Shown: positions 3,073-17,980, counted from the stretch's first letter. The stretch is 20,000 nucleotides of DNA from an uncultured virus (IMG/VR IMGVR_UViG_3300010885_058768) (IMGVR_UViG_3300010885_058768:57289-77288); one strand, 5' to 3'. The notes: a model not told the origin generated them from the letters alone. Numbers and translations are program-made.

Positions 3073-3270
3073 ATGGCTCAAGACAACCAAGCCGACCAAG
3101 GCGAATTTTTAGGTAACGTTCTAGTGCTAACTAGAAATCAACTAGCGTCTGCTATGAACGCATGCACTGAACTAGAGGCTGCATTGACTATAGAAAGAAA
3201 GCGCAATGAAGAGCTAGCTGCTCGAGTCGCTGAACTAGAGTCTCAGACTAAGGCAGCTACGGATAAATAA
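3073..3270 (+). CDS. Small coiled-coil hypothetical protein
   Basis: AAGGA-type RBS upstream, a heptad pattern (LEAALTIERKRNEELAARVAELE), and TAATG coupling to the next gene. Confidence 0.75.
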   Translation: MAQDNQADQGEFLGNVLVLTRNQLASAMNACTELEAALTIERKRNEELAARVAELESQTKAATDK

Positions 3271-3740
3271 TGATTAACGTAAAAGATGGCGCCAGAACTC
3301 TTCAATTTGATGGAGAGCTTTTAGGTACGTCTTCTTCATACAGGAGAGGCTCTGTCCGCTGGATTGAGTTTGAGCTGTATAGAACCAAGAGCGGTTCGTA
3401 TGTTTTGTCTCGTGTTGGAGTTTCACTGGTCTTCCATGGAGCGGCGTGTCCTCTAGTAAAGAGATACAGTCTTACTGAGGCGCCGGTTGAAGACCTAACT
3501 GAACGCTCTCTTCCTTGCGAGCAGTGCAACCCTACTGATGACGTAGATTTAGTGTTCCCCGAAAAGAGTAGAAGCTGGGCGCAGGTTAGCGAAGAGCCGC
3601 AGGCTGTTCTAGACGCGCTTTACAAGTACGATGACGGTGGAGCAAGGTACCTAACAAACGTGGCGCAAAGGCTATTAGAAGATTCAGCCGAAAAAGACTC
3701 CAAAATAGATGAAGTCTACAGGATAGAACTTATCCCATAG
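3270..3740 (+). CDS. Hypothetical phage protein with a possible Zn site (H-x3-C ... CxxC)
   Basis: 156-aa ORF coupled to the upstream gene; motifs FHGAACPL and PCEQCNP. Confidence 0.75.
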   Translation: MINVKDGARTLQFDGELLGTSSSYRRGSVRWIEFELYRTKSGSYVLSRVGVSLVFHGAACPLVKRYSLTEAPVEDLTERSLPCEQCNPTDDVDLVFPEKSRSWAQVSEEPQAVLDALYKYDDGGARYLTNVAQRLLEDSAEKDSKIDEVYRIELIP

Positions 3741-3742
3741 CC

Positions 3743-3751
3743 TGTTATAAT
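3743..3751 (+). promoter_or_regulatory. Extended -10 promoter element (TGnTATAAT) for the nucleotide metabolism/replication operon
   Basis: TGTTATAAT lies about 25 nt before the ATG at 3777 and is followed by an AAAGGA RBS. Confidence 0.6.
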
Positions 3752-3776
3752 TGAACAAAGACGCAAAGGACAAAAG

Positions 3777-4787
3777 ATGTTTATAGTAATCGAAGGCACA
3801 GACGCCTCAGGTAAGAGTTCACTTACTCAGGCTGTCGAAGAAGAAATCGCAAGCAGGCTCCAATCAAGGCTGCCTATCAACTCATTCCATAAGGGTAAAC
3901 CTGAGGAAGAGACTCGTCGTTGGGTTTTGCGTGATTACGTTCTGTCAATAGAAGATAAGTCATTCGTAGACAAGGCGACACTCGCTGACCGCTGGCACTG
4001 GGGAGAAATAACCTACGCTCCGCTAAAACGTCCACACACTAACAAGGACGGATACGGCCTTCTTGGAGAGGCTGGGTGGCGCTGGGTGGAACTTTTTATG
4101 GCTTCCCGTGGTATCCAACAGTTCTGGCTTTACCAGCCTCTAAGTGTCATAGAGGGCCGTCTAAAGGCGCGTGGTGATGACTATGTCTTGCCTGATGAGC
4201 TACCTTTTATTCTAGAACAATACGGCAAGGCAGCCGAGCAAATCATTGGCCTAAAGAAACTTCAACCTGCTCCAGACAGCCTAGATGAGATTCCAAATCT
4301 CGCTAAGGAAATTGTTGACCTAGCGCTTGTCAAGGCTGAGTCCGTTAGAGCTCTAAGAGACTTTGGTCCGTACATCGGAGTTCCTAAGCCTAAGGTTCTG
4401 CTAGTCGGCGATAGGCACAATGCCACTAAGCGCTATGGGCACGAGACTAACCTTCCATTTATGCCTGTTGATGGGAACTCAGGCGAGTATCTTCTCACTG
4501 CTCTTCCGGCAGATGAGTGGAAGAACATCGGACTTATAAACATAAACGACCATCCGGAGATGTTCCGTTCTCTTTGGGAAGCGCTAGGCTGTCCGCCGAT
4601 AGTAGCGCTTGGTCGCCTGGCCGAGCGAGGCCTAGTTAAACAAGGATTCATAGATTCTCAATACAACGTTGCTCCGCATCCGCAGCGGGTGCGCAGATTT
4701 GCAAACTCTAGAAAACAAGAATACGGCGAGGCGATACTTAGATTAGCCGACACTACAGATAAGGAAGACAAATGGATACTGCGATAA
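3777..4787 (+). CDS. Thymidylate-kinase-like (dNMP) kinase fused to a C-terminal uracil-DNA glycosylase-superfamily-like domain
   Basis: N-terminal: IVIEGTDASGKSS P-loop, DR motif (LADRWHWGEITY), RLKARGDD lid. C-terminal: KVLLVGD...PF...GNSGEYLL...IVALGRLA...PHP, which follows the UDG family-4-like motif order. Confidence 0.8.
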   Translation: MFIVIEGTDASGKSSLTQAVEEEIASRLQSRLPINSFHKGKPEEETRRWVLRDYVLSIEDKSFVDKATLADRWHWGEITYAPLKRPHTNKDGYGLLGEAGWRWVELFMASRGIQQFWLYQPLSVIEGRLKARGDDYVLPDELPFILEQYGKAAEQIIGLKKLQPAPDSLDEIPNLAKEIVDLALVKAESVRALRDFGPYIGVPKPKVLLVGDRHNATKRYGHETNLPFMPVDGNSGEYLLTALPADEWKNIGLININDHPEMFRSLWEALGCPPIVALGRLAERGLVKQGFIDSQYNVAPHPQRVRRFANSRKQEYGEAILRLADTTDKEDKWILR

Positions 4788-5626
4788 TCAACATCAAAGA
4801 CGGAGTCAATGGCTACGTTGACCTAGTGCAACATGTTTTAAAACACGGTAAGGAAGTGGCTCCACGTGGGCAGAAGACCAGAGAAATTGAAGACGCCATC
4901 ATTAGAATCGATGATGTCTACAACACTTTGCCTTTAGGAATCAACCGTGGAACCGTTCCTGGAATCGGTGCTGTAGAGGCTTGTCAGCTACTTGGAGGAA
5001 GCAGCATCCCGGAGCTAGTGATAGCCGTTGGTCCACAGTTCAAAAACTTTGCCGAGGATAACGGAATCTTTCACGGTGCGTATGGACTTAGAACCAATGG
5101 GCAATACGACGTTATTATCGAAAGACTCAAGGCAGACCCTGATACTCGCCAGGCCGTAGTCACAATCTGGAATCCAGAGTACGACCTGCAGCCAAGCAAG
5201 AGAGACTATCCTTGCACGGTTTTACATCAATTTAGAATTCGTGACAATAAACTAAACATGAGCGTCTACATGCGTTCCAATGACGTTTGGCTTGGTGCCG
5301 CCTACGACTTCTTCCAGTTTACCCGTGTTCAGTTGGCTATTGCTTCAGTGCTAGGAATCGAACCTGGAACTTATAACCACCACGTCGGCTCGCTTCACAT
5401 CTATGAGCAGCACTACGAGGCTGCAGACAGTCTCAAGTATAGTGATAAGATTATTGATGTGCCGTTTATAACTGGAGCAACATGGGCAGAGGTTAGCGAC
5501 TCAGCAAATGACGCTTTGTTTGCCGCCATGGATGTTAAGCCACTAGATAGCATAAGCCAAGACGCACGCTGGTACGCCGAGGCAATGAAAAACGCAATCA
5601 AGCGCAACGCTGAGAAGAGTGAGTAA
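4772..5626 (+). CDS. Thymidylate synthase-family enzyme, dCMP hydroxymethylase type
   Basis: Motifs YGLR, DTRQAV, catalytic PC (Cys148), MRSNDVWLGAAYD and SLHIYE. It has Asp179 where dUMP-specific ThyA has Asn (E. coli RSCDVFLGLPFN). Confidence 0.85.
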   Translation: MDTAIINIKDGVNGYVDLVQHVLKHGKEVAPRGQKTREIEDAIIRIDDVYNTLPLGINRGTVPGIGAVEACQLLGGSSIPELVIAVGPQFKNFAEDNGIFHGAYGLRTNGQYDVIIERLKADPDTRQAVVTIWNPEYDLQPSKRDYPCTVLHQFRIRDNKLNMSVYMRSNDVWLGAAYDFFQFTRVQLAIASVLGIEPGTYNHHVGSLHIYEQHYEAADSLKYSDKIIDVPFITGATWAEVSDSANDALFAAMDVKPLDSISQDARWYAEAMKNAIKRNAEKSE

Positions 5627-5866
5627 ATGCCAGAAGACGGCGAGCAGTACATAGACCTAGGCATTAGCCACCTACGTATTGTCGCCGTTCAACTTCACGT
5701 GGTCTACAAAGAACTACGCGAGGCCGGATTCGATAAAAGTGAAAGCTTATATCTAATCTCGCAGCTGCTTGTTGTGTCTACTCCTGAAGTAGACAGTGGA
5801 CCTTATAGATACGACAACTACAACGACAATGAGAGAGACGATGACGATGATGGTGCAGGAGCCTAG
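5627..5866 (+). CDS. Small hypothetical protein with acidic tail
   Basis: Starts immediately after the upstream stop; helical core (QLHVVYKELREAGFDKSESLYLI) plus an Asp-rich tail. Confidence 0.7.
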   Translation: MPEDGEQYIDLGISHLRIVAVQLHVVYKELREAGFDKSESLYLISQLLVVSTPEVDSGPYRYDNYNDNERDDDDDGAGA

Positions 5867-6323
5867 GCCGTCCTGGGACGAAGTTTGGATGGACGTTGCT
5901 AGAACTATTAGCAAACGTTCAAGATGCTCTAGAGCGCACGTAGGCGCAGTAGTAGTTTCGGCTGAACAGCGAATAAGCGCGACTGGCTACAACGGCCCGG
6001 CTGCGAATCTAAAAGTACAAGGCGACTGCATAAATTGGTGCGACAGAGCTAAGGGTCTTACTCCACTTGACAATACCTATGATTCTTGTCCGTCTATTCA
6101 TGCTGAGGCCAACGCTCTTTTATACGTAGACCGCTCGAGAATTGAAGGCGGAACTATCTACGTTACTGGTGCTCCGTGTATGCAGTGCGCCAAACTTATC
6201 AGCAACTCTGGACTGCGTAGAGTCGTCTCCATTGTTAGGCAGATAGATGTGCACAGAAAGCCAGAACGCGTGATAGACTATTTACGTAGCTGCGGAATAG
6301 AAGTATCTACCATTGAGGAGTGA
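5847..6323 (+). CDS. dCMP deaminase
   Basis: RPSWDE N-terminus, RSRC...VGAVVV, ATGYNG, HAE and PCMQC zinc motifs. The start is probably one of the ATGs at 5841/5847/5850 rather than the GTG at 5796. Confidence 0.9.
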   Translation: MMVQEPRPSWDEVWMDVARTISKRSRCSRAHVGAVVVSAEQRISATGYNGPAANLKVQGDCINWCDRAKGLTPLDNTYDSCPSIHAEANALLYVDRSRIEGGTIYVTGAPCMQCAKLISNSGLRRVVSIVRQIDVHRKPERVIDYLRSCGIEVSTIEE

Positions 6324-6326
6324 CAA

Positions 6327-8147
6327 ATGACACGTGGATTAGAAGAAGTAAAGTTAGACCTAGTTGATAGCGTTGAAAAGGCAGGACAGTTTCTAACCTG
6401 GCTTGGAGAACGCAGGCCACACAACGCTATAGCCATTGACACTGAAACAGGAGAGCTTCCTGGTCGCCCGCGCTCAGATGCGCTTTCTCCTTGGCACGGC
6501 AGACTTCGTTTAGTGCAGGTTGGGGATGCGATGCACGGCTGGGCGATTCCTTGGGACGAATGGGCTGGAGTCTTCTACCAAGCAATGAACAAATACGATG
6601 GTCAAATCGTGTGTCACAACATCGCCTTTGAAGCTAAGTTCTTTGAGATTCAGTCTAAGTGGAGTATGCCTTGGCAAAAGGCGCACGACACTATGATTAT
6701 GGCTCAAATTATCGACCCGCTTGGCTCTGGCGCTTTGAAGAGGCTGACATCACAATACGTTGACAGCAGGGCGGCTGCTTTGCAGTCTAACTTAGATAAC
6801 GCTTTGATAGACAACGGTTGGACCTGGGGAACTGTACCTACAAACTTTGAACCGTATTGGGCCTATGGCGCACTGGACACTGTGCTCACGATGAGACTGT
6901 GGGAAAAGTTCTGGGAGAAATGCGGACCTGATGGACCTTATAGCAGATCGTACGAGCTTGAGATGGCTGCAAGAAAAATAGTCACTCGCATGGAACTCAA
7001 CGGAGCGCGCATCGATTTAGATTATTCGCGTAAGAAATACGAAGAACTTAACAGCTATACTGAGCAAGTGAAGGCTTGGGCAAGAGACACGTACAATGGA
7101 GTTTCTATTACCAGCAACATTCAACTAGTTAGGTTGTTTGAAAGCATGGGAGCTGAGTTCACTGAGTTTACTGCGACTGGCCAGAAATCTGCTACTAAGG
7201 ACCAACTAAGACTTCTAGTGCGAGACGGCTCCCCAGAAGTACAGAATTTAGCTCAAACAGTTTTGGCTCAACGTAAGGCAGATAAACTAGCCAACACCTA
7301 CTTCCTAAACTTTATAAATGACAACATTAACGGATTCGTTCACCCGTCTGTAAAGACTCTTGGTGCGCGTACTGGTCGCATGTCTATCACTAATCCTGCA
7401 CTGCAGACTCTACCTAAGGGCGATGACACTGTTCGCCGTGCATTTATTCCTAAGGACGAAGACCACGTAATCGTGACCTCTGACCTTGACCAAGTCGAGT
7501 TTCGTATGTTTGCGTCGATGTCCAAGGACCCTAACCTAATCAGCCTGTTCAACCTTGCTGACGCAACTGGTTCGGACCCGTTTACTGAGATTGGCCGTGA
7601 GATTTATGCTGACCCGTCTATGCAACGTTCAGATAAGAGACGTAATCTAATCAAAGGCGTAATCTACGGTCGTCTTTATGGAGCCGGAGTTGAGAAGCAG
7701 GCAATCACTGCTGGTGTTGCAAAAACACAGATGCAGGCTGTGTCAGACGCCTTTGACACTAGGTTCCCAGGCATGTCCGTCTTTCAAAAGCAAATCGATG
7801 ACCTTGGCATGCGCAGACTGCGAGCTGAAGGTCAAGGATACGTTCACACTTGGACTGGAAAACGTCTTCCTTGTGATGACGACCGCACCTATACCTTAGT
7901 GAACTATCTGATTCAAGGTGGAGCTGCTGAGGTATTTAAGAACAACTTAGTAAAGTTAGACCAAGCAGATTTGACAGATTTGCTTATCGTGCCGGTGCAC
8001 GATGAAATCGTACTAAACGCACCAAGAAAAGATGTCAAAGAGATTATGCAGACTGTAAAGGAGTGTATGACTACGACAGAGGGATGGGCAGTTCCGCTCA
8101 CCTCGGGAATCGATGGACCACTTGAAACGTGGGGAGATAAATACTAA
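6327..8147 (+). CDS. polA: DNA polymerase family A (3'-5' exonuclease plus polymerase, no 5' nuclease)
   Basis: ExoI DTET, ExoII HNIAFE, ExoIII YGALD, TGRMS...PALQ, motif A DLDQVEFR, motif B KGVIYGRLYG, motif C VHDEIV. Confidence 0.95.
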   Translation: MTRGLEEVKLDLVDSVEKAGQFLTWLGERRPHNAIAIDTETGELPGRPRSDALSPWHGRLRLVQVGDAMHGWAIPWDEWAGVFYQAMNKYDGQIVCHNIAFEAKFFEIQSKWSMPWQKAHDTMIMAQIIDPLGSGALKRLTSQYVDSRAAALQSNLDNALIDNGWTWGTVPTNFEPYWAYGALDTVLTMRLWEKFWEKCGPDGPYSRSYELEMAARKIVTRMELNGARIDLDYSRKKYEELNSYTEQVKAWARDTYNGVSITSNIQLVRLFESMGAEFTEFTATGQKSATKDQLRLLVRDGSPEVQNLAQTVLAQRKADKLANTYFLNFINDNINGFVHPSVKTLGARTGRMSITNPALQTLPKGDDTVRRAFIPKDEDHVIVTSDLDQVEFRMFASMSKDPNLISLFNLADATGSDPFTEIGREIYADPSMQRSDKRRNLIKGVIYGRLYGAGVEKQAITAGVAKTQMQAVSDAFDTRFPGMSVFQKQIDDLGMRRLRAEGQGYVHTWTGKRLPCDDDRTYTLVNYLIQGGAAEVFKNNLVKLDQADLTDLLIVPVHDEIVLNAPRKDVKEIMQTVKECMTTTEGWAVPLTSGIDGPLETWGDKY

Positions 8148-8614
8148 TGACAAAAATGATTTTAGCAGTAGACCCTGGCAAGGCGACAGGAATGGCGCTA
8201 TTTACCTTTGAGGTTGGCAGTGAGCCAGAACTAGTCTGGTCTATAGAGGTTCAACAGCACGAGTACGCTGAGCCTATTCGAAACACGCTGCTTCTTGCAG
8301 ACTACTCGGGTGTCTCTCTTGAGATAGTCTGCGAAAGATTTACGATAAACGCGCAGACAGTAAAGAACACTCAGGCGCCATACTCACTTGAGCAGATTGG
8401 AATTCTAAAGCAATGCATGATGGACAAGTTGATTGACCCGGACTCAATTGTGTTCCAGTCTCCAGCTGACGCTAAGAGAATGTTTACCAACGAGGCACTC
8501 AAGAAACTTGAGTATTGGCACAAGGGTGGAGAGGGTCACGCTCTAGATGCGATTAGACACGGGCTTCTTCGGCTAGTAAAAACTGGTTGGAAGCCTCTTA
8601 GACTGCTCCAATAA
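8147..8614 (+). CDS. RuvC-like (RNase H fold) Holliday junction resolvase
   Basis: ILAVDPGKATG, central VCERF, C-terminal HALDAIRH; position directly after polA. Confidence 0.75.
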   Translation: MTKMILAVDPGKATGMALFTFEVGSEPELVWSIEVQQHEYAEPIRNTLLLADYSGVSLEIVCERFTINAQTVKNTQAPYSLEQIGILKQCMMDKLIDPDSIVFQSPADAKRMFTNEALKKLEYWHKGGEGHALDAIRHGLLRLVKTGWKPLRLLQ

Positions 8615-8649
8615 AAACAAGAAATAATACCACATACTAATAGAAAACA

Positions 8650-8678
8650 CAGACAAACTGTAAAAATCGTGTTAGTAT
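8650..8678 (+). promoter_or_regulatory. Putative sigma70-type promoter upstream of the helicase
   Basis: CAGACA (8650-8655), 17-nt spacer, TAGTAT (8673-8678) with an upstream TG, then a GAAAGGA RBS before the GTG at 8705. Confidence 0.45.
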
Positions 8679-8704
8679 GTTTTTAGTGACGAAAGGAATA
8701 CACA

Positions 8705-10513
8705 GTGCCAGTATACGCTGAAATTGACCCAAATGGTAAGCACGTAGTGCTAACCGCTGACTGGAGATTCAAGGAGCTCTGCAAGAGCGTTCCAGGCGCA
8801 AGCTACAATGGCAAGGAACAAGTATGGAGAGTTCCTGTTTCTTGGGGAACATGCTTGGCCTTGCGTTCAACATTTAGAGATGAACTAATAATCGGCGAAA
8901 ATCTTTCCACCTGGGCAAACAACGAATTAGCTACACGAATCAATCCTGCCAATGAGCTAAGAGACCTAGAGGTGCTGCCTGAAGGAGAAGGCGACCAAGA
9001 CCTTTTCCCGCATCAACGTGCAGGAGTTAAGTTTTTGGCCACAGCTCGCAGAGCTCTTCTTGCGGATGAGCCAGGTCTAGGAAAAACCGCTCAGGCTATC
9101 CGAGCTATCAAGGAGCTACAGGATAGAGGTGAACAGGTGTTTCCTGCGCTTGTCGTTTGCCCGAACACGCTAAAGAAAAACTGGAAGCGCGAGTTTGAGA
9201 GATGGTGGCCTGGAGTCAACGTAGAAGTAATCAAGGGTTCGGCAACACAAAGGCGAAATCAGTTTGAAGCAGAGAACGTTGATGTCTATGTTATCAACTG
9301 GGAGTCTCTGCGCACTCATTCTCGCTTATCGGGATACGGTTCAATTGCACTTGCTCGTTGCATCGAGTGCGGAGGCCACGATGAAAAGGTCACGGCCAAT
9401 CGTTGTGAGGTTCACCTACGAGAATTAAACAAAATCGACTTCAAGGCTGTGGTGGCCGATGAGATTCACAGGTCAAAGGAGCCTAAGTCTAAACAGACTA
9501 GAGCTCTGTGGGCCGCAACGGGAAACGCAGACATTAGATTTGCACTTACTGGAACACCTATAGCTAATAACGTGCTAGACCTATGGGCGATTCTTCACTG
9601 GATAGCTCCAGAGGAGTGGCCAAGTAAGAGTCGCTGGATTGACCGCATGATTGACATAATGCTAAACGCGTTTGGTGGAATGATGGTTCTTGGTGTAAAG
9701 CCTCTAATGGAGCCAGAGTTCCATGCGTCTATAAATCCTAGAATGCGTCGAATGCTAAAGGCTCGCGTGCTTCCATGGCTGCCTGAAATGATGTTCGAGA
9801 GACGTGATGTCGAGATGTCTACTAAGCAGAAGAAAGCTTACGAGCAGATGCGCGACAACATGATTGCAGAACTTGAAAACGGAGAGGCTATCACGGCTCC
9901 TAGCGCGCTGACTCAAACTACGCGTCTATTACAGTTCGCTAGTTCATACGCAGAGAACACATTTGACGAGGTCTCAGGTGAAACTAGAACTGTGTTGACA
10001 GCTCCGTCTGCCAAGGTTGATGCTCTAATGGAAGACATTAGCAATGGAGACTTTGGAGATGACTCTGTCGCAGTGTGCGCGGTGTCTAGACAGCTAATTG
10101 AAATTCTTAGCGCTGAGCTAACAAGCGCTGGAATAGCCCATGGACTAATTACAGGTGCTCAAAATGAAGATGAACGTCAGAAGTCAATTGACGACTTCCA
10201 GTCCGGTAAAACTAAATGGATTCTGTTTACAGCTCAGGCTGGAGGTGTCGGTGTGACCTTGACTGCAGCTCGCAGACTAGTTATGCTCCAGAGACCTTGG
10301 TCTCTAGTCGACCACAAGCAGGCTCTAGATCGAATCCATAGAATTGGTTCCGAAATACACGATTCAGTAGTTATAATGGACTATATAACTGAAAACACGA
10401 TTGAGGAACGAGTACTTCAAGTCTTAGAAACTAAGGCTGATAACTTCGAGCAAATCGTGAAGGATAAAGACAAATTACTAGCGATGCTCAAGGACGACAA
10501 GGAAAGCAAATAA
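8705..10513 (+). CDS. SNF2-family DNA helicase/translocase
   Basis: LADEPGLGKT, DEIH, LTGTPIAN, AGGVGVTLTAA and QALDRIHRIG motifs; GTG start with a strong RBS. Confidence 0.93.
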   Translation: MPVYAEIDPNGKHVVLTADWRFKELCKSVPGASYNGKEQVWRVPVSWGTCLALRSTFRDELIIGENLSTWANNELATRINPANELRDLEVLPEGEGDQDLFPHQRAGVKFLATARRALLADEPGLGKTAQAIRAIKELQDRGEQVFPALVVCPNTLKKNWKREFERWWPGVNVEVIKGSATQRRNQFEAENVDVYVINWESLRTHSRLSGYGSIALARCIECGGHDEKVTANRCEVHLRELNKIDFKAVVADEIHRSKEPKSKQTRALWAATGNADIRFALTGTPIANNVLDLWAILHWIAPEEWPSKSRWIDRMIDIMLNAFGGMMVLGVKPLMEPEFHASINPRMRRMLKARVLPWLPEMMFERRDVEMSTKQKKAYEQMRDNMIAELENGEAITAPSALTQTTRLLQFASSYAENTFDEVSGETRTVLTAPSAKVDALMEDISNGDFGDDSVAVCAVSRQLIEILSAELTSAGIAHGLITGAQNEDERQKSIDDFQSGKTKWILFTAQAGGVGVTLTAARRLVMLQRPWSLVDHKQALDRIHRIGSEIHDSVVIMDYITENTIEERVLQVLETKADNFEQIVKDKDKLLAMLKDDKESK

Positions 10514-11448
10514 TGACAACAGTAGAACCAATCAAAATCTCTAACTCTGAGATTCAAACATTCAAGGATTGCCGTCGCAAGTGGTGGTTAGCTTATTACC
10601 GTAGACTGCAACCAAAAAACAAAAACAAGACGGGCGCACTTGCACTTGGTTCTCGTATTCACGAAGCACTTGACATGTACTATTCAACTGGTCAGGATTT
10701 GCTCGAGGCTCACGCAGAACTTCTAAACAAAGACCGTGAACTGTATAAAGCGGAATGGCGCGACCTAAGTGAGCTTGAGTCTGAAGGCGAACTTGGCCGC
10801 ATCATGCTTGAAGGCTACCTGCAGTGGGTAGACGAAGAAGGCATCGACGCTGAGCTAGAAATGATTTCCACTGAGGAGATTATCTCAATGCCTTTGATGG
10901 AAGGCCGCGTAGAGCTACAAGGTAAACTAGACATGCGTGTTCGTCGCAAGGGCGACGGAGTGCGTATGTTTAGAGACTTTAAAACCGTTGGCGGTTCTTT
11001 CTCTGACTTTGCAAACCAGGCTCAAATGAACGAACAGATTCTTACCTACATGCTTCTTGAGTCAGCTCAGAACAAAGAAGGTGAACGTTCCGAAGGTGGA
11101 ATCTTTACCATGCTAAAAAAGGTAAAGAGAACCGCGAACGCAAAGCCTCCGTTCTTTGAACAGATTGAAGTTCGCCACAACGTGTTTACTATGCGTTCGT
11201 TTTGGCAGAGACTGCACGGCACGCTTACCGACATGCTTCGAGTGCGCGATGCTTTAGATGAAGGTGCAAACCCGCAGTTTGTAGCTTACCCGACTCCATC
11301 TAGAGACTGCAAGTGGAAGTGCCAGTTCTATTCAGTGTGTCCGCTAATCGACGACGGCTCTGCGGCAGAGCAGGCAATCAGCGAGCTATTTGAAGAATCT
11401 AATCCGTACGCATACTATGGTCAGGAAGACCCAAAGGGTGATGCGTAA
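10513..11448 (+). CDS. Cas4/RecB-like PD-(D/E)XK exonuclease, probably with an Fe-S cluster
   Basis: SNSEIQTFKDCRRKW, GSRIHEAL, GKLD...DFKT, QILTY and C-terminal CKWKCQFYSVC (1+3 Cys arrangement). Confidence 0.88.
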   Translation: MTTVEPIKISNSEIQTFKDCRRKWWLAYYRRLQPKNKNKTGALALGSRIHEALDMYYSTGQDLLEAHAELLNKDRELYKAEWRDLSELESEGELGRIMLEGYLQWVDEEGIDAELEMISTEEIISMPLMEGRVELQGKLDMRVRRKGDGVRMFRDFKTVGGSFSDFANQAQMNEQILTYMLLESAQNKEGERSEGGIFTMLKKVKRTANAKPPFFEQIEVRHNVFTMRSFWQRLHGTLTDMLRVRDALDEGANPQFVAYPTPSRDCKWKCQFYSVCPLIDDGSAAEQAISELFEESNPYAYYGQEDPKGDA

Positions 11449-11512
11449 TGAAGACTTTATTGCAATTCCGCAATGAGAAAACAACAACAACAAATGAAGG
11501 AAGGATGAGAGT

Positions 11513-12268
11513 ATGTCAGACGTTCAACGTTCACTAACCATAATGGTTTATGGCGAGTCTAAGGTTGGTAAGTCAACCTTTGCTGTTACAGCACCATACC
11601 CACGTCTCATGCTTGACGTAGAAGGCGGACACCGTTTCTTGCCTATCAACGTAAAGTACTGGGACCCACTGCGCGAGGAGCCACCAGTTGCCGACGGCAC
11701 TTGGGACACCTGCGTAGTACCAGTTCGTGATTACGATACTGTCCTAAAGGCTTATCAATGGCTACAGCTTGGTAAGCACCAGTTCAAATCACTTATCATC
11801 GACTCAGTATCTGAGTTGCAGGTTAAGTGTATGGACAACATCGCTGGAGTAAATCAGATGCAGATGCAGCAGTGGGGCGAACTACTTCGTCACATGGGTT
11901 CTCTGCTTCGCGATTTGCGTGACCTAACGATGCACCCTACCGCTCCGCTAGAAGCAGTAGTTCTAACCGCGATGGCAAGACCTAGCCAGGATGGACGCAC
12001 GCGTCCTTACCTGCAAGGACAACTTGCAATCCAGGCTCCGTATTTTTACGATGTCCTTGGAGCAATCAACGTTGAAACCATCCAAAATCCTGACCCAACT
12101 CAACCTCCATACCGCGCTCGTCGCATGTATGTTGAAAGAACTGACAAATACGAAGCCGGCGAACGCGTCCAGGGCCGTCTTGGTCAAATCGTTGAGCAGC
12201 AGGACCTCGGAATCGAGCGTATGCTCGACATGATTTTCGGTCCAAAGACCGAGAGCAAGTCGGTCTAA
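11513..12268 (+). CDS. Sak4-like / AAA_24 P-loop ATPase (recombination or annealing)
   Basis: YGESKVGKST Walker A, LDVEGG, IIDSVSELQ; lies between the exonuclease and the SSB. Confidence 0.82.
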   Translation: MSDVQRSLTIMVYGESKVGKSTFAVTAPYPRLMLDVEGGHRFLPINVKYWDPLREEPPVADGTWDTCVVPVRDYDTVLKAYQWLQLGKHQFKSLIIDSVSELQVKCMDNIAGVNQMQMQQWGELLRHMGSLLRDLRDLTMHPTAPLEAVVLTAMARPSQDGRTRPYLQGQLAIQAPYFYDVLGAINVETIQNPDPTQPPYRARRMYVERTDKYEAGERVQGRLGQIVEQQDLGIERMLDMIFGPKTESKSV

Positions 12269-12314
12269 CCAATCCCGGTTAGTCGATAACTACAGAAAGA
12301 TAAGGAATCTCATT

Positions 12315-12866
12315 ATGAGTTCATTAAACTGGGGAGACCTAGTAAAGGACGCCGGAGAATCTTCCGGCGGTCAATACGAGCCGTTGCCAGACGGTGACTA
12401 CGACCTGAAGGTAATCGAGGCTTCGGCCGCGGTTTCACAGTCAGGTAAAACCATGTTCAAAATCACTACTGAGGTTCAGGCAGGTGCGTTCGCTAAGCGT
12501 CGTATCTGGGACAACTTGGTAGTATCTCCAGACAGCCCAGCTGCTCTAGGCATCTTCTTTTCGAAGATGGCCGCGCTTGGTCTGCCTCGCGAGTACTTCA
12601 TGGGAAACCCAAGCAACGCGACTATTGAAGCCGCTATTCTAAATCGTGCATTCCGCGCGCAAATTGGCTCACGTGTGTGGCAAGGCGCTAAGAAGAACGA
12701 GATTAAGAAGTACTACGTTGCTCCTGCGGCTGGCGTTGCTGCCGCTGTAGCTCCTGCTGCTCCAGCACCCGCTCCAGCACCCGCTGCTGCTCCAGCTCCA
12801 GCACCCGCTCCAGCGCCGGCCGCAGCTCCTGTAGCTGCTGCTGCTCCACCTGCATCGCCGTTCTAA
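12315..12866 (+). CDS. Single-stranded DNA-binding protein (DUF669-like) with Ala/Pro-rich tail
   Basis: YEPLPDGDY...SQSGKTM...IWDNL...NEIKKY pattern, terminal PF, and position downstream of the Sak4-like gene. Confidence 0.8.
   Translation: MSSLNWGDLVKDAGESSGGQYEPLPDGDYDLKVIEASAAVSQSGKTMFKITTEVQAGAFAKRRIWDNLVVSPDSPAALGIFFSKMAALGLPREYFMGNPSNATIEAAILNRAFRAQIGSRVWQGAKKNEIKKYYVAPAAGVAAAVAPAAPAPAPAPAAAPAPAPAPAPAAAPVAAAAPPASPF
12759..12818 (+). repeat. GCTCCAGCACCC-type repeats encoding (AP)n linker
   Basis: Three exact copies of GCTCCAGCACCC plus variants. Confidence 0.85.
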
Positions 12867-12872
12867 ACGGAT

Positions 12873-12916
12873 AGTTGTTGTCCTGGGTTCTCTGATAGAG
12901 TGCCCAGGACGCAACT
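12873..12916 (+). terminator. Long intergenic stem-loop (terminator, attenuator or processing site)
   Basis: AGTTG-TT-GTCCTGGG-TT-CTCT-GAT-AGAG-TG-CCCAGGAC-G-CAACT directly after the ssb stop; no U-tract. Confidence 0.6.
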
Positions 12917-12934
12917 CTAACTTCAAGGACTACA

Positions 12935-14149
12935 ATGAAAATTCTTATGACAGGCTATACAGCCTTGCAGATTGGTAATCCAGTCCGCAGTATTCAAAAA
13001 ATCAACGTTCCAGCATCTATCGTGAAGGCGCTGCGTGACGCCGGACACGAGGTCGATTGGCGGAAGGTCACCGTTGGCGAAGACCTATCTATGTACGATG
13101 TTGCCTGGATAAACTTGGCGCCAATGAACTCGCTAAATGGACGCCATGGAGCGATGGGTACTCTGTACACTTTAGCTTCTGGTCTACCTTGCGTAGGCTT
13201 CTTCGATGACTGGCAGTTCAACGCTGTGTTCAACGGTGCACGCGCGCTAAAGCGTGACACGACTAAGATGCTTTATAAGCACCTGTTTGGTCCAGCAGAC
13301 GCTCGTGGCACTGAGGCAGCTACGCATTTTAGCCGCAAGTCAGTAGACGAGGCTATAGCTCGTATTGAAGCTGTAGACCCGGCTCGAGCAAAGAAAATCT
13401 CCTTCGAGAGATACTACATGTTAGACAAAGACGCAGACGTCGAGCCTTACGAAAAAATGCTCATTGAGTCAGCTAGTCTTCTTCTAAATGATCGTTGGGC
13501 TGAAGGAATGGTTCCAGTGTGTCCAATGTATGGTTTTGGTGATCGTTCACTTGTGCGCAAGCGTATGCCAAAGGACATGGGCGCAATCGAGGCGCTAGAC
13601 CCAAGCCCGACTATTTATGAGCTTCTAAATGAGGTTGCTCCGGCTGCACCTGAAACCAAAAAACGCGGCTGGGTACTTGGCGCGCTTATGCCACACGACA
13701 CCTGGTTAGATAAGAAAACTATTTCCTGGCCTGTAGAAATCGTTGGTAGTCGCAAACTTGTTCGTGAACGCGGCGGTCAGCGCTTTGACACAGAGAAAGA
13801 AGTGCTAGAGTTCTATAACCAGCACTGGGGAATTATGTCTCCGCCTTACATGCACTCTGGCTCAGGCTGGTGGCGTAGTCGTTTTATGTACGCAGCCCGT
13901 GTTGGTTCTATCCTGTTGACTGAGAAGGGTGAAGCCAATGGGCTTGGCTCAGCTTACAACGTCACTCTCGCTCAGGTTGAGAAGATGTCAGACGAGGAGC
14001 TAAAGGCTACAGCAGACGCACAGGCCCAAGCGCTTCGCGCATTTATGCCAACCTATCAAAGCTTCGCTGAACACTGTGTAAGAATCGTAGAACGAGCTGT
14101 GAAAGAAGACAAGGGCCTAAAGCTAAATCCTGACGGCACTCGAGCATGA
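12935..14149 (+). CDS. Putative DNA glycosyltransferase (GT-B fold, T4 beta-glucosyltransferase-like), paralog 1
   Basis: GT-B N-terminus MKILMTG...KALRDAGHEVDW...DLSMYDVAWINLAP...GFFDDW, similar in layout to T4 BGT; C-terminal PPY..GSGWWRSRF; nucleotide-modification gene context. Confidence 0.65.
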   Translation: MKILMTGYTALQIGNPVRSIQKINVPASIVKALRDAGHEVDWRKVTVGEDLSMYDVAWINLAPMNSLNGRHGAMGTLYTLASGLPCVGFFDDWQFNAVFNGARALKRDTTKMLYKHLFGPADARGTEAATHFSRKSVDEAIARIEAVDPARAKKISFERYYMLDKDADVEPYEKMLIESASLLLNDRWAEGMVPVCPMYGFGDRSLVRKRMPKDMGAIEALDPSPTIYELLNEVAPAAPETKKRGWVLGALMPHDTWLDKKTISWPVEIVGSRKLVRERGGQRFDTEKEVLEFYNQHWGIMSPPYMHSGSGWWRSRFMYAARVGSILLTEKGEANGLGSAYNVTLAQVEKMSDEELKATADAQAQALRAFMPTYQSFAEHCVRIVERAVKEDKGLKLNPDGTRA

Positions 14150-15168
14150 GCAAGATTTTGGTGACTGGAATGTCAGCACCACAGGCGTCTCAAAAGGCTA
14201 ACTCTCGAGGTTTAAGTTTTACTAAAGTCGTAGTTGACGCGTTGTCTGAGCTTGGCCACGAGGTTCACTGGTCTCTGCCCTCGCTAGACTGGACTGAGGA
14301 AGACTTGTCTTTATTTGACTCGGTTGTAGTTGGAGTTTCTCCGCTAACGAGTCTAAGTGCTAACTACTCATACGGTGGTCTTCATGCTATTGGAGAACTA
14401 AAGGACAGTGACAAACTTACCCTACTAATCGATGCTCCACAGGTTGCTCAAATAGGTGCGGGTCTACGGGCAGTTAGAAGTAATCCTGATAGCCTCACTA
14501 AGGCATTCTATTCGAATAGGCCAGGGTATCAGCGGGTGACGGATTCGAGTGTCTCTAAAAGGCTTCTAGCCACCGCCGAGTGGTTGCTGGACGAGCAGTG
14601 GCCAACAACTATCTATCCCGAGTTGCCGTGGAAAGATTCCGACTCGACAGAGCAACTTCTTCCTAGTGGAGCTAAAGGTGCGTTAGTTGGAATCAACCGA
14701 GACATCGCTCTAATCGAAAAAGACCTACTTACTGCAAGAAGAGAGAAGTGGGTAGTCGACAGCTACACGACTCCATGGGCTAAGTCTACAGTAAAAACTA
14801 TCTCACTCCCGACTGCTCCTATGAAGTGGCATAAGGGATGTGACGACGTCATGGTCCAAACTCAAATTGCTCGGTCAATTGGAGCACTAATAACTCCTTA
14901 CAGACAAGACGGCACTTGGTGGAGCTACAGATACGCTCAAGCGCTGTCTGCCTACACACCAATAGCTACAGGCTGGCAAGAGAGCGGGAAACTGCACGAC
15001 TCCTGGAGTTTCTTAGCGGCAACTATTGAAAGTGCAAGTCAGAATATACGTGATGGTATTTCTATAGAACAGCGTGAGTCCTACGTGGCGGCCATTCCAA
15101 GTATAATCGAAACCAATAAGAAACTTCAAGACACACTAAAAATTACAAAAAGAAAGGTAATACTATGA
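14146..15168 (+). CDS. Putative DNA glycosyltransferase (GT-B fold), paralog 2
   Basis: KILVTG...ALSELGHEVHW...DLSLFDSVVVGVSP...LLID and TPY...GTWWSYRY are collinear with the upstream gene; ATGA overlap. Confidence 0.6.
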   Translation: MSKILVTGMSAPQASQKANSRGLSFTKVVVDALSELGHEVHWSLPSLDWTEEDLSLFDSVVVGVSPLTSLSANYSYGGLHAIGELKDSDKLTLLIDAPQVAQIGAGLRAVRSNPDSLTKAFYSNRPGYQRVTDSSVSKRLLATAEWLLDEQWPTTIYPELPWKDSDSTEQLLPSGAKGALVGINRDIALIEKDLLTARREKWVVDSYTTPWAKSTVKTISLPTAPMKWHKGCDDVMVQTQIARSIGALITPYRQDGTWWSYRYAQALSAYTPIATGWQESGKLHDSWSFLAATIESASQNIRDGISIEQRESYVAAIPSIIETNKKLQDTLKITKRKVIL

Positions 15169-15653
15169 GCGATAACGTGCTTTTTAAAAAGTGGCTCGAG
15201 AAAACAAGAGAGCTTCAAAAAGAAGTTTACAAAATAGACTACGCCTCAATGGAAGGCGATAGCCCAGAAAACATCAATAACCTAGTTGAGTACATTCGCT
15301 GGAACATGCTTGCCATTGACGATGAGCTAGCAGAAATGCGCCAGGCAATCTCGTGGAAGCCGTGGCAGCATGACGAGCCATACGCAGACCGCGAGGAGCT
15401 AATCAAGGAAGCCGTAGACGTTCTGCACTTCGTGGCTAACATAATCGTAGCTGCTGGAGGAACTGACGAGGTACTAGATGAGTTCTACGTAGCTAAGATG
15501 GAAAAGAACCGTGCAAGACAGACCGCTGGATACAAGGTCAAGGCCGAGGGAATCAAGTGCGTAATGTGCTCGCGCGCGTTAGATGATGTGGCACCTAGCG
15601 AAAATCATCCAAATGTATGCGTAAAGTGTGATGAAGAAGATAGGAACAAGTAA
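15165..15653 (+). CDS. All-alpha (MazG / dimeric dUTPase-type) dCTP/dUTP pyrophosphatase with C-terminal CxxC..CxxC
   Basis: DELAEM..ISWKPW...EELIKEAVDVLHF...KMEKNRARQ..GY; tail CVMC...CVKC. Confidence 0.85.
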   Translation: MSDNVLFKKWLEKTRELQKEVYKIDYASMEGDSPENINNLVEYIRWNMLAIDDELAEMRQAISWKPWQHDEPYADREELIKEAVDVLHFVANIIVAAGGTDEVLDEFYVAKMEKNRARQTAGYKVKAEGIKCVMCSRALDDVAPSENHPNVCVKCDEEDRNK

Positions 15654-16072
15654 TGGGAAGCGTAGATTTTGAATGGGTAAGACAACAGTTTATTGAGTCT
15701 AAAACTAAAATCGTAGTTGGTCTAGCCGTAATGAAGCTACTTGAAACTTGGCAAGAGATTGACCTAACACCAGACCAGGCAAAAGAAGTCTTTGAAATCC
15801 TAGGTTCTTTAGCGCAAGGTCACGCCATAGCAGCGAGCAAACCTGATGAGGTCTGGGTTGGCGCTAGACGTGGAGACCTAAAGGTTGGAGACGAAGTTCG
15901 TGTCAAGCGTGACGCCTACTCTGGAGAGCTAGGTACTCTTCACAATGGGCGCCGAGGAAAAATTATAGCAATTAGAAGTGGTGACATCATCATAAGAACT
16001 CTTGACAACAAGAGTCCATCATTAGATGGAGTACACTACGCTCCTGACCAGTTAGAAAAGAGAATCGTCTAA
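15653..16072 (+). CDS. Hypothetical protein with helical N-terminus and SH3/KOW-like C-terminus
   Basis: DLKVGDEVRVK...HNGRRGKIIAIRSGDIIIR...YAPDQLEK; TAATG coupling at both ends. Confidence 0.7.
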   Translation: MGSVDFEWVRQQFIESKTKIVVGLAVMKLLETWQEIDLTPDQAKEVFEILGSLAQGHAIAASKPDEVWVGARRGDLKVGDEVRVKRDAYSGELGTLHNGRRGKIIAIRSGDIIIRTLDNKSPSLDGVHYAPDQLEKRIV

Positions 16073-16380
16073 TGACAGAAGAATCTAAAAATGAACTTCC
16101 TAGAATTGAGGCTTTGCGTGAGGCTGCAAGAATTATCTCTGGTGATAGAGACGTGCAGTATGGAGCTCCAGAAGATAACCTAGGACGTATAGCTAAGCTG
16201 TGGTCGGTTTTATTTGAAAAAGAGATTACGGCTCAAGACGTGGCGATGGCGATGGTCGCACTAAAGATGGCTCGCTATGTGAACAAGGGAGACTTCCAGC
16301 CCGACACCTGGATTGACATCGCTGGATACGCTGGAATTGGCTATGAAGTTGGCAAACCTAAGAACGAGAGCAATCTATAA
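16072..16380 (+). CDS. DUF6378-like phage protein
   Basis: EAARIISGDRDVQYGAPEDNLGRIAKLWS...DVAMAMVALKMAR...DTWIDIAGYA pattern. Confidence 0.8.
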   Translation: MTEESKNELPRIEALREAARIISGDRDVQYGAPEDNLGRIAKLWSVLFEKEITAQDVAMAMVALKMARYVNKGDFQPDTWIDIAGYAGIGYEVGKPKNESNL

Positions 16381-16385
16381 AATCT

Positions 16386-16424
16386 TTGCAAATGTGACTA
16401 TTTTTCGTATTTATAGTTTATAAT
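16386..16424 (+). promoter_or_regulatory. AT-rich promoter region upstream of the DenV-like gene
   Basis: TATAAT at 16419-16424 followed by a GAAAGGA RBS; the -35 element is uncertain. Confidence 0.5.
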
Positions 16425-16447
16425 GGAATTATTACGAAAGGACAACC

Positions 16448-16987
16448 ATGCAAACATTCGTTCCACTGACAACTAAGTTCTCTGACATAGCGCAGGTTCT
16501 AGACAACAAGCGACTAAACAAGCAGGCACTAGAAGGCTGGCAGATTCTTATGGTTCTGACCAGGCTAAACCCAGACGGCTCACAGCGCGTAGTCAAAGGC
16601 TGGGCGAACCATCCAGCAGTCAAGATGTGGGAAGGCCACGAAGTAGCTCTTCACGACTACATCCAGGAGATGGTTATCGAATGGAAAAAACGTGGCTTCA
16701 AGTCGACCATCGGAGACAAGGCTGCACAGACCATGCAGCACGCCAAGGCTAACGGTTTTGACATCGATACGTACACTCTCCCGTCTTGGATGGTTGACCA
16801 TGAAGTTCATGAACTCGTTGCGGCTAGTCACCGGGTAGCTCTTCTAAACAAAAACTATCAGTGGTACACGCAGTTCGGTTGGCAGGAAGACGACGGAATC
16901 TATCCTGAAGTTTACACGTATGTTTGGCCTAATGTTGACGGCACGTACATCATAGGTGAACCAAGAGCCACTTTAGCCAACAAATAG
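16448..16987 (+). CDS. MSMEG_6728-family / pyrimidine-dimer DNA glycosylase (T4 endonuclease V-like)
   Basis: MQTFVP...LDNKRLNKQALEGWQIL...GWANHPAVKMWEG...EWKKRGF...SHRVALL.K...Y.WP. Confidence 0.85.
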   Translation: MQTFVPLTTKFSDIAQVLDNKRLNKQALEGWQILMVLTRLNPDGSQRVVKGWANHPAVKMWEGHEVALHDYIQEMVIEWKKRGFKSTIGDKAAQTMQHAKANGFDIDTYTLPSWMVDHEVHELVAASHRVALLNKNYQWYTQFGWQEDDGIYPEVYTYVWPNVDGTYIIGEPRATLANK

Positions 16988-17121
16988 AGGTCACCAGGCG
17001 GTCGTAGAGACACTTTCACGCCTGCGCCCAGGTACTAATACCCCCTAAAAATTCAAGAAACACCGGGGCTTTTACCCAAAACTTTTGCTCTAAACCCTGT
17101 AATATTTTTATAGGCGCTGGA

Positions 17122-17469
17122 ATGGAAGCAATGAAAAGAGAATCTCGCATAGGTGAGTCTCTGTGGCAGGAGTGGACCGGAGACGGCTACGAATCTGCTA
17201 ACGAAAATGCCGTCGTGTTCTTTACAGAGGAGCACGTCGACGTCGAAATTGACGTAGTGCAACGCGCACTTGCTTCCGCTTTACAGCGAGACGGCTCTGT
17301 CTCCTCTCTCGGACAGGGCTACAAGGCGATTGAAGACGCCATAATCACGCAAGGATACGCTGGACAGGTTGACGGAGAACCGGACCTAACTCTATGCGAT
17401 GACCAGGGAGAAACCAGGTATGGAGACTGCGTTGAAAGCGTAGTTGCCGTCACCTGGGTAGAGGTGTAA
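17122..17469 (+). CDS. Acidic hypothetical protein
   Basis: 115-aa ORF abutting whiB; the start may be the ATG at 17131. Confidence 0.7.
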   Translation: MEAMKRESRIGESLWQEWTGDGYESANENAVVFFTEEHVDVEIDVVQRALASALQRDGSVSSLGQGYKAIEDAIITQGYAGQVDGEPDLTLCDDQGETRYGDCVESVVAVTWVEV

Positions 17470-17470
17470 G

Positions 17471-17980
17471 TTGACAAAAAATAACGACATGTCTTGGCAA
17501 AAAGACGGAGTCTGCGCTAGACCAGAAAACAAGGGTAAAGAGACGTTCTTCTTCTCAAGTAAGACGGACGAAAAATACCAGGCAAAGAACATGTGCTTCT
17601 CCTGCCCTGTAAGACGAGACTGTGTCAAGTTCGCTCTCGAGACAAAACAAATCTGGGGTATCTGGGGTGGAAAAGACGAAGGAGAAATCCGCAGGACTCT
17701 TTCTGTGTCCTGGAACGGTCAGGAATCAAGAAGACAGAGACCGCCTCAATGTCCTTATTGCAACGCAAGAACTAGTAAGTTGCAGACTATAGTGGCTGAC
17801 GTTCCCGGCGGTGGGCGATGGACCACGATGAAACTTGTAAATTGCACTGAGTGTGACTTTACTTGGAGAAGTAGAACTAGTGCTAACGCTGTAGAGACTT
17901 ATCACATTCAAAGAAGCGAAAAACTCGCAAAGAGCGAAGAAGAAAAGAAAGCTAAGAAGCCTAAAGCTTTACCGGAATAA
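17471..17980 (+). CDS. whiB: WhiB-family Fe-S transcription factor with C-terminal zinc ribbon and basic tail
   Basis: WQKDGVC...FF...AKNMCFSCPVRRDC..FAL....WGIWGG, then CPYC-x25-CTEC and a Lys-rich end. Confidence 0.9.
   Translation: MTKNNDMSWQKDGVCARPENKGKETFFFSSKTDEKYQAKNMCFSCPVRRDCVKFALETKQIWGIWGGKDEGEIRRTLSVSWNGQESRRQRPPQCPYCNARTSKLQTIVADVPGGGRWTTMKLVNCTECDFTWRSRTSANAVETYHIQRSEKLAKSEEEKKAKKPKALPE

Follow-up and report, generated by a model that had tools for sequence, protein, structure and literature searches.

Does a freshwater actinophage that replicates with a family A DNA polymerase exchange the cytosine of its DNA for a modified base and glycosylate it afterwards, in the manner of the T-even phages? 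The question is raised by the final 20 kb of a 77,288-base record of an uncultured virus (IMG/VR IMGVR_UViG_3300010885_058768:57289-77288; G+C content ~48%). This whole stretch of 20,000 nucleotides is called the window here, and all positions are counted from its first base. An earlier note, made from the sequence alone, had read the region 3777-16987 as a complete T-even-style cytosine hypermodification pathway, and every gene that it placed there is present, on the plus strand and co-oriented with polA, helicase and ssb (open reading frame (ORF) list, Pfam, PHROG). In T4, the set comprises the dCTPase gp56, the deoxycytidine monophosphate (dCMP) hydroxymethylase gp42, the deoxynucleoside monophosphate (dNMP) kinase gp1, the dCMP deaminase Cd and the alpha- and beta-glucosyltransferases; the glucosyl-hydroxymethylcytosine made with it lets T4 evade restriction and CRISPR. 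Based on our data, we assign a probability of about 0.6 to a pathway in which cytosine is replaced before replication and the new base is glycosylated afterwards to glycosyl-hydroxymethylcytosine (glycosyl-hmC), with the organisation of the T-even pathway and different protein families. The interpretation of the earlier note is supported in part: its core is favoured by the active-site signature of gp42 in a thymidylate synthase (TS) homologue, a gp56-like dCTPase, a kinase, a deaminase and a glycosyltransferase (GT) of 404 amino acids (GT404) that tracks the TS gene.

A thymidylate synthase homologue with the active-site residues of T4 gp42

The gene at 4772-5626 encodes a TS-family protein (PF00303, 2.9e-27), which had been noted as a dCMP-type enzyme and which we likewise predict to be a dCMP 5-hydroxymethylase, i.e. 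a 5-hydroxymethyl-dCMP (5hm-dCMP) synthase. Its closest sequence match in the PDB is the CMP 5-hydroxymethylase MilA (5b6d, 2.5e-22). In this enzyme family, N177D (E. coli ThyA numbering) selects dCMP as substrate, L143D/E correlates with a non-methyl product, and D169N is the mark of the newly found flavin-dependent 5-hydroxy-dCMP synthases (PMC13326640, 2026; cited here and below from the part of its text that was available). We built an alignment of the window enzyme, E. coli ThyA, RB69 Td, T4 gp42, RB69 gp48, SPO1 gp29, the CP-51 enzyme and three relatives, which come from the metagenome-assembled Actinomycetia phage DSL-LC01, the nearest annotated relative and syntenic with the window, and from the cultured Gordonia phages GodonK and Forza, which together with Sixama carry the same modules. 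At positions 143/169/177, E. coli ThyA and RB69 Td have L/D/N, T4 gp42 has D/D/D, the 5-hydroxycytosine (5hoC) synthase RB69 gp48 has E/N/D, and SPO1 gp29 and the CP-51 enzyme have D/D/N; these controls agree with the published residues. The window enzyme and its counterparts in DSL-LC01, GodonK and Forza read D/D/D, as do all complete TS ORFs of related IMG/VR loci (11/11). Asp177 is also found in MilA, and the catalytic C146 is kept in the window enzyme together with E58, Y94 and R166. From this signature, and by a residue rule that is empirical, we predict that the enzyme makes 5hm-dCMP and is neither a thymidine monophosphate (dTMP) synthase nor a dUMP (deoxyuridine monophosphate) hydroxymethylase nor a 5-hydroxy-dCMP synthase.

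Three other assignments were tried and rejected. A canonical ThyA is at odds with D177 and D143 in place of Asn177 and Leu143, and the TS equivalogs of NCBIfam all stay far under their cut-offs (best 90.1 bits vs 174.55; 78.5 vs 108.35). Thymine hypermodification via 5-hydroxymethyluracil (5-hmU) was considered because a dCMP deaminase and a dUTPase-like gene are present and the TS homologue resembles CP-51; however, position 177 is Asp in the window enzyme, whereas SPO1 gp29 and CP-51 have Asn. Finally, a 5hoC pathway of the RB69 gp48/DLP3 gp80 type does not fit the retained D169, where the RB69 gp48 control has Asn.

The TS homologue might still yield another product, either 5-methyl-dCMP, the route reportedly used by Xanthomonas phage XP12, or 5-hydroxy-dCMP as in RB69, with different chemistry downstream. 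Such an outcome gains some room from the alignment controls, which include no XP12-type methylase, and from the fact that Asp177 fixes the cytosine substrate only while the product rule for 143/169 is empirical (PMC13326640). We nevertheless regard it as improbable, as Asp143 is shared with the hydroxymethylases T4 gp42, MilA and SPO1 gp29 whereas the methyl-forming ThyA has Leu, Asp169 stands where RB69 gp48 and all tested 5-hydroxy-dCMP synthases have Asn (PMC13326640), and a methyl group would offer no hydroxyl to the co-varying GT404.

The wider genome was accessible through a 121,061-base IMG/VR contig with proteins identical to those of the window (estimated completeness 90%). In this 121-kb genome there is no second or canonical TS: PF00303 has a single match, and the Pfam scans of 44 and 46 ORFs outside the window found no other. 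Therefore, dTMP must come through the host enzyme.

Supply of the modified precursor

Directly upstream of the TS gene, the gene at 3777-4787 encodes a two-domain protein of 336 amino acids. Residues 1 to ~190 adopt the YorR/Tmk fold of P-loop kinases (phrog_761 thymidylate kinase, 5e-8, in the N-terminal half), and residues ~190-328 a divergent alpha/beta fold of uracil-DNA glycosylase (UDG) families 4/5. The dNMP kinase that had been proposed here thus exists as a domain of YorR/Tmk fold, but it is not of the gp1 type and it is fused to a UDG fold. We consider this domain a candidate 5hm-dCMP kinase. The protein misses the threshold of the dTMP kinase equivalog TIGR00041 (17.7 bits vs 83.25), and it has no match to the UDG model PF03167 even at E<=10. 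Within the kinase-UDG family the motifs GDxRN and HPQ are invariant; at the presumed equivalent sites, family 4 UDGs have GE(A/G)PG and HPS. The BLASTP alignment with the GodonK kinase is confined to the kinase domain.

Downstream of the TS gene follows a zinc-type dCMP deaminase (5796-6323; PF00383, 9.1e-21; phrog_174, 2.2e-46), whose sequence shows HAE and PCxxC motifs, in accordance with the earlier assignment; it is predicted to supply dUMP. The remaining precursor enzyme is encoded on the far side of the replication genes, at 15165-15653: a protein of 162 amino acids had been taken for an all-alpha NTP pyrophosphatase and is borne out as an all-alpha NTP pyrophosphohydrolase (PPase) by a dUTPase_2 match (PF08761, 3.7e-10) and by homology to gp56. 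When compared with the whole T4 and RB69 genomes, gene 56 (dCTPase/dUTPase) is its sole match, and BLASTP aligns it with T4 gp56 over 136 amino acids at 26% identity (E 4e-10). The alignment of T4 gp56 with the all-alpha domain runs up to the end of gp56; the PPase continues with a C-terminal CxxC...CxxC segment (residues ~130-160), a possible zinc ribbon, and gp56 is without such a tail.

By their labels, the same genes could also be read as ordinary auxiliaries of dTTP (thymidine triphosphate) supply, namely a divergent dTMP synthase, a dTMP kinase, a dUTPase and a dCMP deaminase, with no base replaced. Together, deaminase, dUTPase, TS and Tmk would indeed form a coherent dTTP route, and GenBank labels the corresponding genes of DSL-LC01 and the Gordonia phages as thymidylate synthase, thymidylate kinase and MazG-like. 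Yet both decisive residues of the TS homologue are exchanged (Asn177 to Asp, Leu143 to Asp), the TS and dTMP-kinase equivalogs all remain far below their cut-offs, the best PDB match is a cytosine hydroxymethylase, and the T4 counterpart of the PPase is a dCTPase, which makes a role confined to dTTP supply highly improbable.

Two paralogous glycosyltransferases of the GT-B fold

Next to the PPase gene lie GT404 (12935-14149) and a second glycosyltransferase of 340 amino acids, GT340 (14146-15168). Neither has a Pfam match, including PF09198 and the other GT models, even at E<=10, and neither is found in NCBIfam; a profile search of the PDB gave no match for GT340. By hhalign, they align as paralogues over their full length (probability 100%, E 5e-42). 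For both, the GT-B fold expected in the earlier note holds, directly in the case of GT340, which has the two-Rossmann architecture, and via hhalign and its neighbours in the Atlas in the case of GT404. The fold of GT340 matches T4 BGT best, with a lead of ~1.3 Z units over the next GT-B enzymes. In the Atlas, the GT404 model lies close to GT4/GT1 clusters and to a viral cluster made up entirely (100%) of PF09198 (T4-Gluco-transf) members; the comparison with this cluster (feature score 0.96, template modelling (TM) score 0.61/0.69) is to be taken as a lead only.

At 50% identity, the large GT404 family falls into 630 clusters, and 4/9 long members scanned are fused to further domains (P0351, P0288, P0269, P0286), which are a C5 cytosine DNA methylase, dUTPase_2 and the S-adenosylmethionine methyltransferase Methyltransf_23. 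In 56 tblastn records the family occurs in Aeromonas, Vibrio, Gordonia, Stenotrophomonas, Erwinia, Actinomycetia and others, with no Rhizobium among the genera tallied; its carriers include DSL-LC01, the Gordonia phages and T4-like phages of Aeromonas, Vibrio, Stenotrophomonas and Erwinia. Two of these, phiAS4 (Aeromonas) and FBB1 (Erwinia), have gp42 homologues that read D/D/D. As a side observation, three successive hypothetical genes of ~350 amino acids surround the GT404-family match of phiAS4 (L019:4895-8167) and may form a multi-GT array.

GT404 is the best candidate for a DNA 5-hydroxymethylcytosine (5hmC) glycosyltransferase. The acceptor of GT340 is uncertain; it may extend or diversify the sugar on the DNA, or act elsewhere. 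Of the two GT-B-like genes in the earlier note, both are thus GT-B enzymes by fold, but a pair of DNA glycosyltransferases is not established, as GT404 alone co-varies with the TS gene.

Co-occurrence of the genes in related phages

This co-variation became apparent from 384 related stretches found in IMG/VR, out of which 80 loci were fetched via GT340. Among them, 57 loci cover the interval from the single-stranded DNA-binding (SSB) protein gene to a gene for a protein of 139 amino acids, and 18 of these also extend 1.6 kb or more beyond the polymerase on its upstream side. In the larger set, GT404, GT340 and the PPase occur together in 39/57 loci, GT340 and the PPase without GT404 in 4/57, and GT340 alone in 14/57. 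In the smaller set, where GT340 is present in 18/18 by construction, TS, deaminase and PPase are jointly present in 12/18 loci and jointly absent in 6/18. GT404 is found in 10/12 TS-positive and 0/6 TS-negative loci, and the DUF6378 gene in 11/12 and 0/6, respectively. Since the co-varying genes lie at four separate positions, their joint presence or absence argues for a functional module with GT404 as a member. The conservation of the gene neighbourhood, which had been suggested as a check, speaks for the pathway: TS, deaminase and PPase travel together (12/12 vs 0/6) and GT404 largely follows them.

A reading that accepts hmC in the DNA but lets the glycosyltransferases act on virion proteins, the host envelope or a small molecule, so that hmC stays unglycosylated or is modified otherwise, has to be considered at this point. 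GT340 is conserved in relatives without a TS gene, many of the top structural matches among GT-B enzymes are lipid, cell-wall or small-molecule glycosyltransferases (PimA, BshA, SenB, WaaG), and the GT-B fold leaves the acceptor unspecified, with no DNA-GT Pfam match for either protein. For GT404, however, such a role is hard to reconcile with its restriction to loci with the TS module, with the fusions of its family to C5 DNA methylase and dUTPase_2, and with the presence of the family in T4-like phages whose gp42 homologues read D/D/D. Besides, both GT genes are flanked by the SSB and dCTPase genes within the replication operon and do not belong to the structural region. Overall, we consider glycosyltransferases without any role on the DNA unlikely.

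For GT340 itself, the relatives without TS are informative. It is kept in two near-complete TS-less genomes, one of them complete at 135 kb with terminal repeats, and the TS-less GT340 orthologues have 530/532 family-invariant positions intact and resemble the window GT340 as much as those from TS-bearing genomes do. Therefore, GT340 should have a role that is independent of hmC made by TS. In these two genomes there is no TS, TET/JBP or C5-methylase gene, and the GT340-type protein is the only member of the GT superfamily. Likewise, no GT404 was found elsewhere in genomes without GT404 beside GT340: in 4/4 records there is one superfamily match per genome, compared with two in the class A control. 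In the complete TS-less genome, a Pfam scan of 67 ORFs detected no other base-modification route. A TET/C5-methylase route in the TS-less relatives was tried as a candidate and rejected, as PF12851 is found in 0/5 records (this phage and four relatives); the C5-methylase model PF00145 matches in 2/5 records, neither of which is one of the near-complete TS-less genomes.

A few side observations may be added. One sub-lineage (L042, L044, L050, L059, L072, L104 and others) is without TS, deaminase, kinase fusion, PPase, GT404 and DUF6378. The complete genome (G001) has a T4 gp1-type dNMP kinase (PF21448) and an unrelated GT1-family glycosyltransferase instead. The genome to which L118 (G004:C1:4426-15178) belongs carries genes for a class II (B12-dependent) ribonucleotide reductase, a thioredoxin, an N6/N4 DNA methylase, a second WhiB protein and a serine recombinase.

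The sugar donor

The earlier note had seen no genes for sugar-nucleotide synthesis in the window, and this holds beyond it: Pfam searches detected none among 44 ORFs in the other 57 kb of the record nor did they in the 46 ORFs from the 44 kb that the 121-kb contig adds, in scans that covered ORFs from 80-90 amino acids upwards except for one of 4391 amino acids. As no such gene was found, the donor is presumably a nucleoside diphosphate (NDP) sugar of the host. The sugar may be a new one, as the earlier note had suggested. The large ORF belongs to the structural region, outside the window (G000:C1:19921-33096).

In this context, two relatives of GT404 have informative neighbours. DSL-LC01 carries a uridine diphosphate (UDP)-galactopyranose mutase gene between its two GT homologues (L001:16324-17421; PF03275, 5e-30), and in Erwinia phage FBB1 such a gene adjoins the GT404 homologue (L021:5937-7001). 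The mutase next to GT404-family genes ties the family to the use of nucleotide sugars, and its adjacency in these two unrelated phages hints at a galactofuranosyl DNA modification there. In the available part of the DSL-LC01 paper, the mutase is treated as an auxiliary gene directed at the host cell wall (PMC10611076).

A proposed pathway and its weak points

The gene content, folds, active-site residues and co-occurrence described above would fit the following route, in which each chemical step, the sugar and the full replacement of cytosine are our proposal. First, the PPase would hydrolyse dCTP and dUTP to the monophosphates, by which dCTP is depleted and dCMP fed forward. The TS homologue would then turn dCMP into 5hm-dCMP with methylene-tetrahydrofolate, with Asp177 for cytosine and Asp143 together with the kept Asp169 for the non-methyl outcome. 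In the third step, the YorR/Tmk-like kinase domain would phosphorylate 5hm-dCMP, the NDP kinase of the host would convert the product to 5hm-dCTP, and the family A polymerase of the phage would incorporate it. In parallel, the deaminase would divert part of the dCMP to dUMP, which would be used by the host thymidylate synthase because the phage is without a canonical one. After replication, GT404 would move a sugar from a host nucleotide sugar onto the hydroxymethyl group of the DNA; GT340 may attach a second sugar or create another type of linkage, and may equally act on another acceptor.

Several points weigh against this pathway. The case is built from sequence, fold and co-occurrence, and the modified base itself, which the earlier note had inferred, has been observed neither in the phage nor in its relatives. 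The rule for positions 143/169/177 is empirical, and L143D is said to 'correlate' with non-methyl products (PMC13326640). At 26% identity, the similarity between PPase and gp56 is weak and gives no indication of substrate specificity. The lead of T4 BGT in the comparison with GT340 is small and the acceptor cannot be told from a common GT-B fold; neither glycosyltransferase matches PF09198 or another GT model of Pfam, and the fold of GT404 depends on its homology to GT340 and a mediocre Atlas model (predicted local distance difference test (pLDDT) 0.66). Furthermore, the 18 loci belong to related phages, so that the all-or-none pattern may go back to a small number of evolutionary events, and GT340 persists in the two near-complete genomes without TS.

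Beyond the glycosyl-hmC pathway proper, a broader scenario may be put forward tentatively. It would be that of an abundant freshwater actinophage lineage in which cytosine is fully replaced by glycosylated 5hmC via an uncharacterised GT-B family shared with the T4-like phages of Aeromonas and Erwinia, with a sugar that varies (a host hexose here, galactofuranose where the mutase is present) and with the kinase-UDG fusion, a new kind of enzyme, and DUF6378, so far unrecognised, as components. As part of this possible scenario, the UDG-fold domain might be there for recognition of the modified pyrimidine, for tethering the synthesis of precursors to the replicating DNA or for policing unmodified bases.

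Comparison with known systems

Compared with the T-even phages, the window phage has the same logical set of activities, with a D/D/D TS homologue, a distant homologue of gp56, a BGT-like GT-B fold and a dCMP deaminase. In contrast to T4, the kinase is a YorR/Tmk domain joined to a UDG fold and not of the gp1 type, the glycosyltransferases belong to unannotated families without a match to PF09198 or AGT, a canonical Td is missing, the polymerase is of family A, the host is actinobacterial (as indicated by the WhiB genes), and in relatives of the phage one glycosyltransferase is decoupled from the TS gene. The departures from the T-even pathway concern four things: the kinase family with its UDG fusion, the unnamed GT families, the missing phage Td, and the type of polymerase together with the phylum of the host.

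A second comparison is with the pathways to glycosylated 5hoC in RB69, DLP3 and Rhizobium phage RL38J1 as described in the available part of PMC13326640, which share a TS with Asp177 and an acidic residue at 143, a Tmk/YorR-like kinase, GT-B glycosyltransferases and a dCTPase. UDP-galactopyranose mutase is used in RL38J1 (PMC13326640) and is also encoded by DSL-LC01. However, the synthases of the 5hoC phages carry D169N and use flavin and O2 to form 5-hydroxy-dCMP, whereas D169 is retained in the window enzyme, and these phages encode genes for NDP-sugar synthesis (PMC13326640), none of which was found in the window phage.

TS-linked GT-B DNA glycosyltransferases as such are already known, since they have been mined at scale in IMG/VR (bioRxiv 10.1101/2023.12.21.572611, in its available part, as also below). 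Phage GT-B enzymes with an architecture like that of T4 BGT were shown to glycosylate 5hmC in DNA, and on the mined GT-B contigs an association with ThyS was reported for ~28% in comparison to ~10% for 5mYOX (bioRxiv 10.1101/2023.12.21.572611). The fusion of a GT404-family member to a C5 DNA methylase resembles the glycosyltransferases of the methyltransferase (MT)/TET clusters (bioRxiv 10.1101/2023.12.21.572611); unlike in those clusters, TET/JBP is found in 0/5 records of the window phage and four relatives.

The closest comparison is with DSL-LC01, GodonK, Forza and Sixama, which have syntenic kinase-TS-(deaminase)-PolA and GT-PPase modules with homologues of GT404 and GT340. In DSL-LC01 and the Gordonia records the genes are annotated as plain thymidylate synthase and kinase, with the UDP-galactopyranose mutase as an addition in DSL-LC01, and the DSL-LC01 paper, in its available part, reads them as ordinary metabolism or host-directed auxiliaries (PMC10611076). 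Within the library covered, our literature search found no account of such a pathway in actinophages.

If the glycosyl-hmC pathway is true, cytosine replacement and glycosylation in the style of T4 would reach phages of Actinobacteria with a family A polymerase, which are common in lake metagenomes, and two large unannotated viral protein families would receive a function. For DSL-LC01 and several Gordonia phages in culture, the genes now labelled 'thymidylate synthase' and 'thymidylate kinase' would then receive corrected names. Resistance to many restriction enzymes and probably to some CRISPR nucleases would be predicted, which bears on host range and on virome sequencing. The natural variants, with both GTs and TS, one GT and TS, or one GT without TS, offer a ready comparative system, and the cultured phages of Gordonia terrae with the same core make the prediction testable at the bench.

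Neighbouring genes and genomic setting

From 3073 to 17980 all substantial ORFs are on the plus strand, with starts that often overlap the preceding stop; the listed genes between 3777 and 16987 are tightly packed, with overlaps of frequently 1-16 nt (ORF list). The pathway genes are separated by a replication and recombination module (6327-12866; Pfam and PHROG matches) with the family A DNA polymerase (6327-8147), an SNF2 helicase (8705-10513) and a DUF669 SSB-like protein (12315-12866), besides a RuvC-like protein, a PD-(D/E)XK nuclease and a Sak4-like AAA_24 protein. The gene order of this module is the same in DSL-LC01 and the 80 IMG/VR loci. The SSB-like protein ends in a long Ala/Pro-rich tail of low complexity.

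Three further plus-strand genes follow the PPase. The protein of 139 amino acids (15653-16072) has no family match in Pfam, PHROG or NCBIfam, and a fold was not assignable from the searches run; its gene adjoins the GT/PPase genes in TS-positive and TS-negative relatives and is present in most related loci. The DUF6378 protein (16072-16380; PF19905, 9e-28), which has no match among PDB sequences, may be an unrecognised component of the pathway; its PHROG label 'phosphofructokinase' looks unreliable. The Pyr_excise protein (16448-16987; PF03013, 3.2e-18) is T4 endonuclease V-like and links to a mycobacterial family (NF038085, MSMEG_6728 family; 101.6 bits vs a cut-off of 100). Its gene is also found in TS-less relatives, and it probably serves DNA repair rather than the pathway. 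The two glycosylase-fold proteins listed in the earlier note correspond to the UDG-fold half of the kinase gene and to this Pyr_excise protein: both exist, but a place in the pathway is not demonstrated for them, the one being joined to a kinase domain and the other endonuclease V-like and present in TS-less relatives. The window itself begins with a tail-fibre gene, and a WhiB gene lies at 17471-17980.

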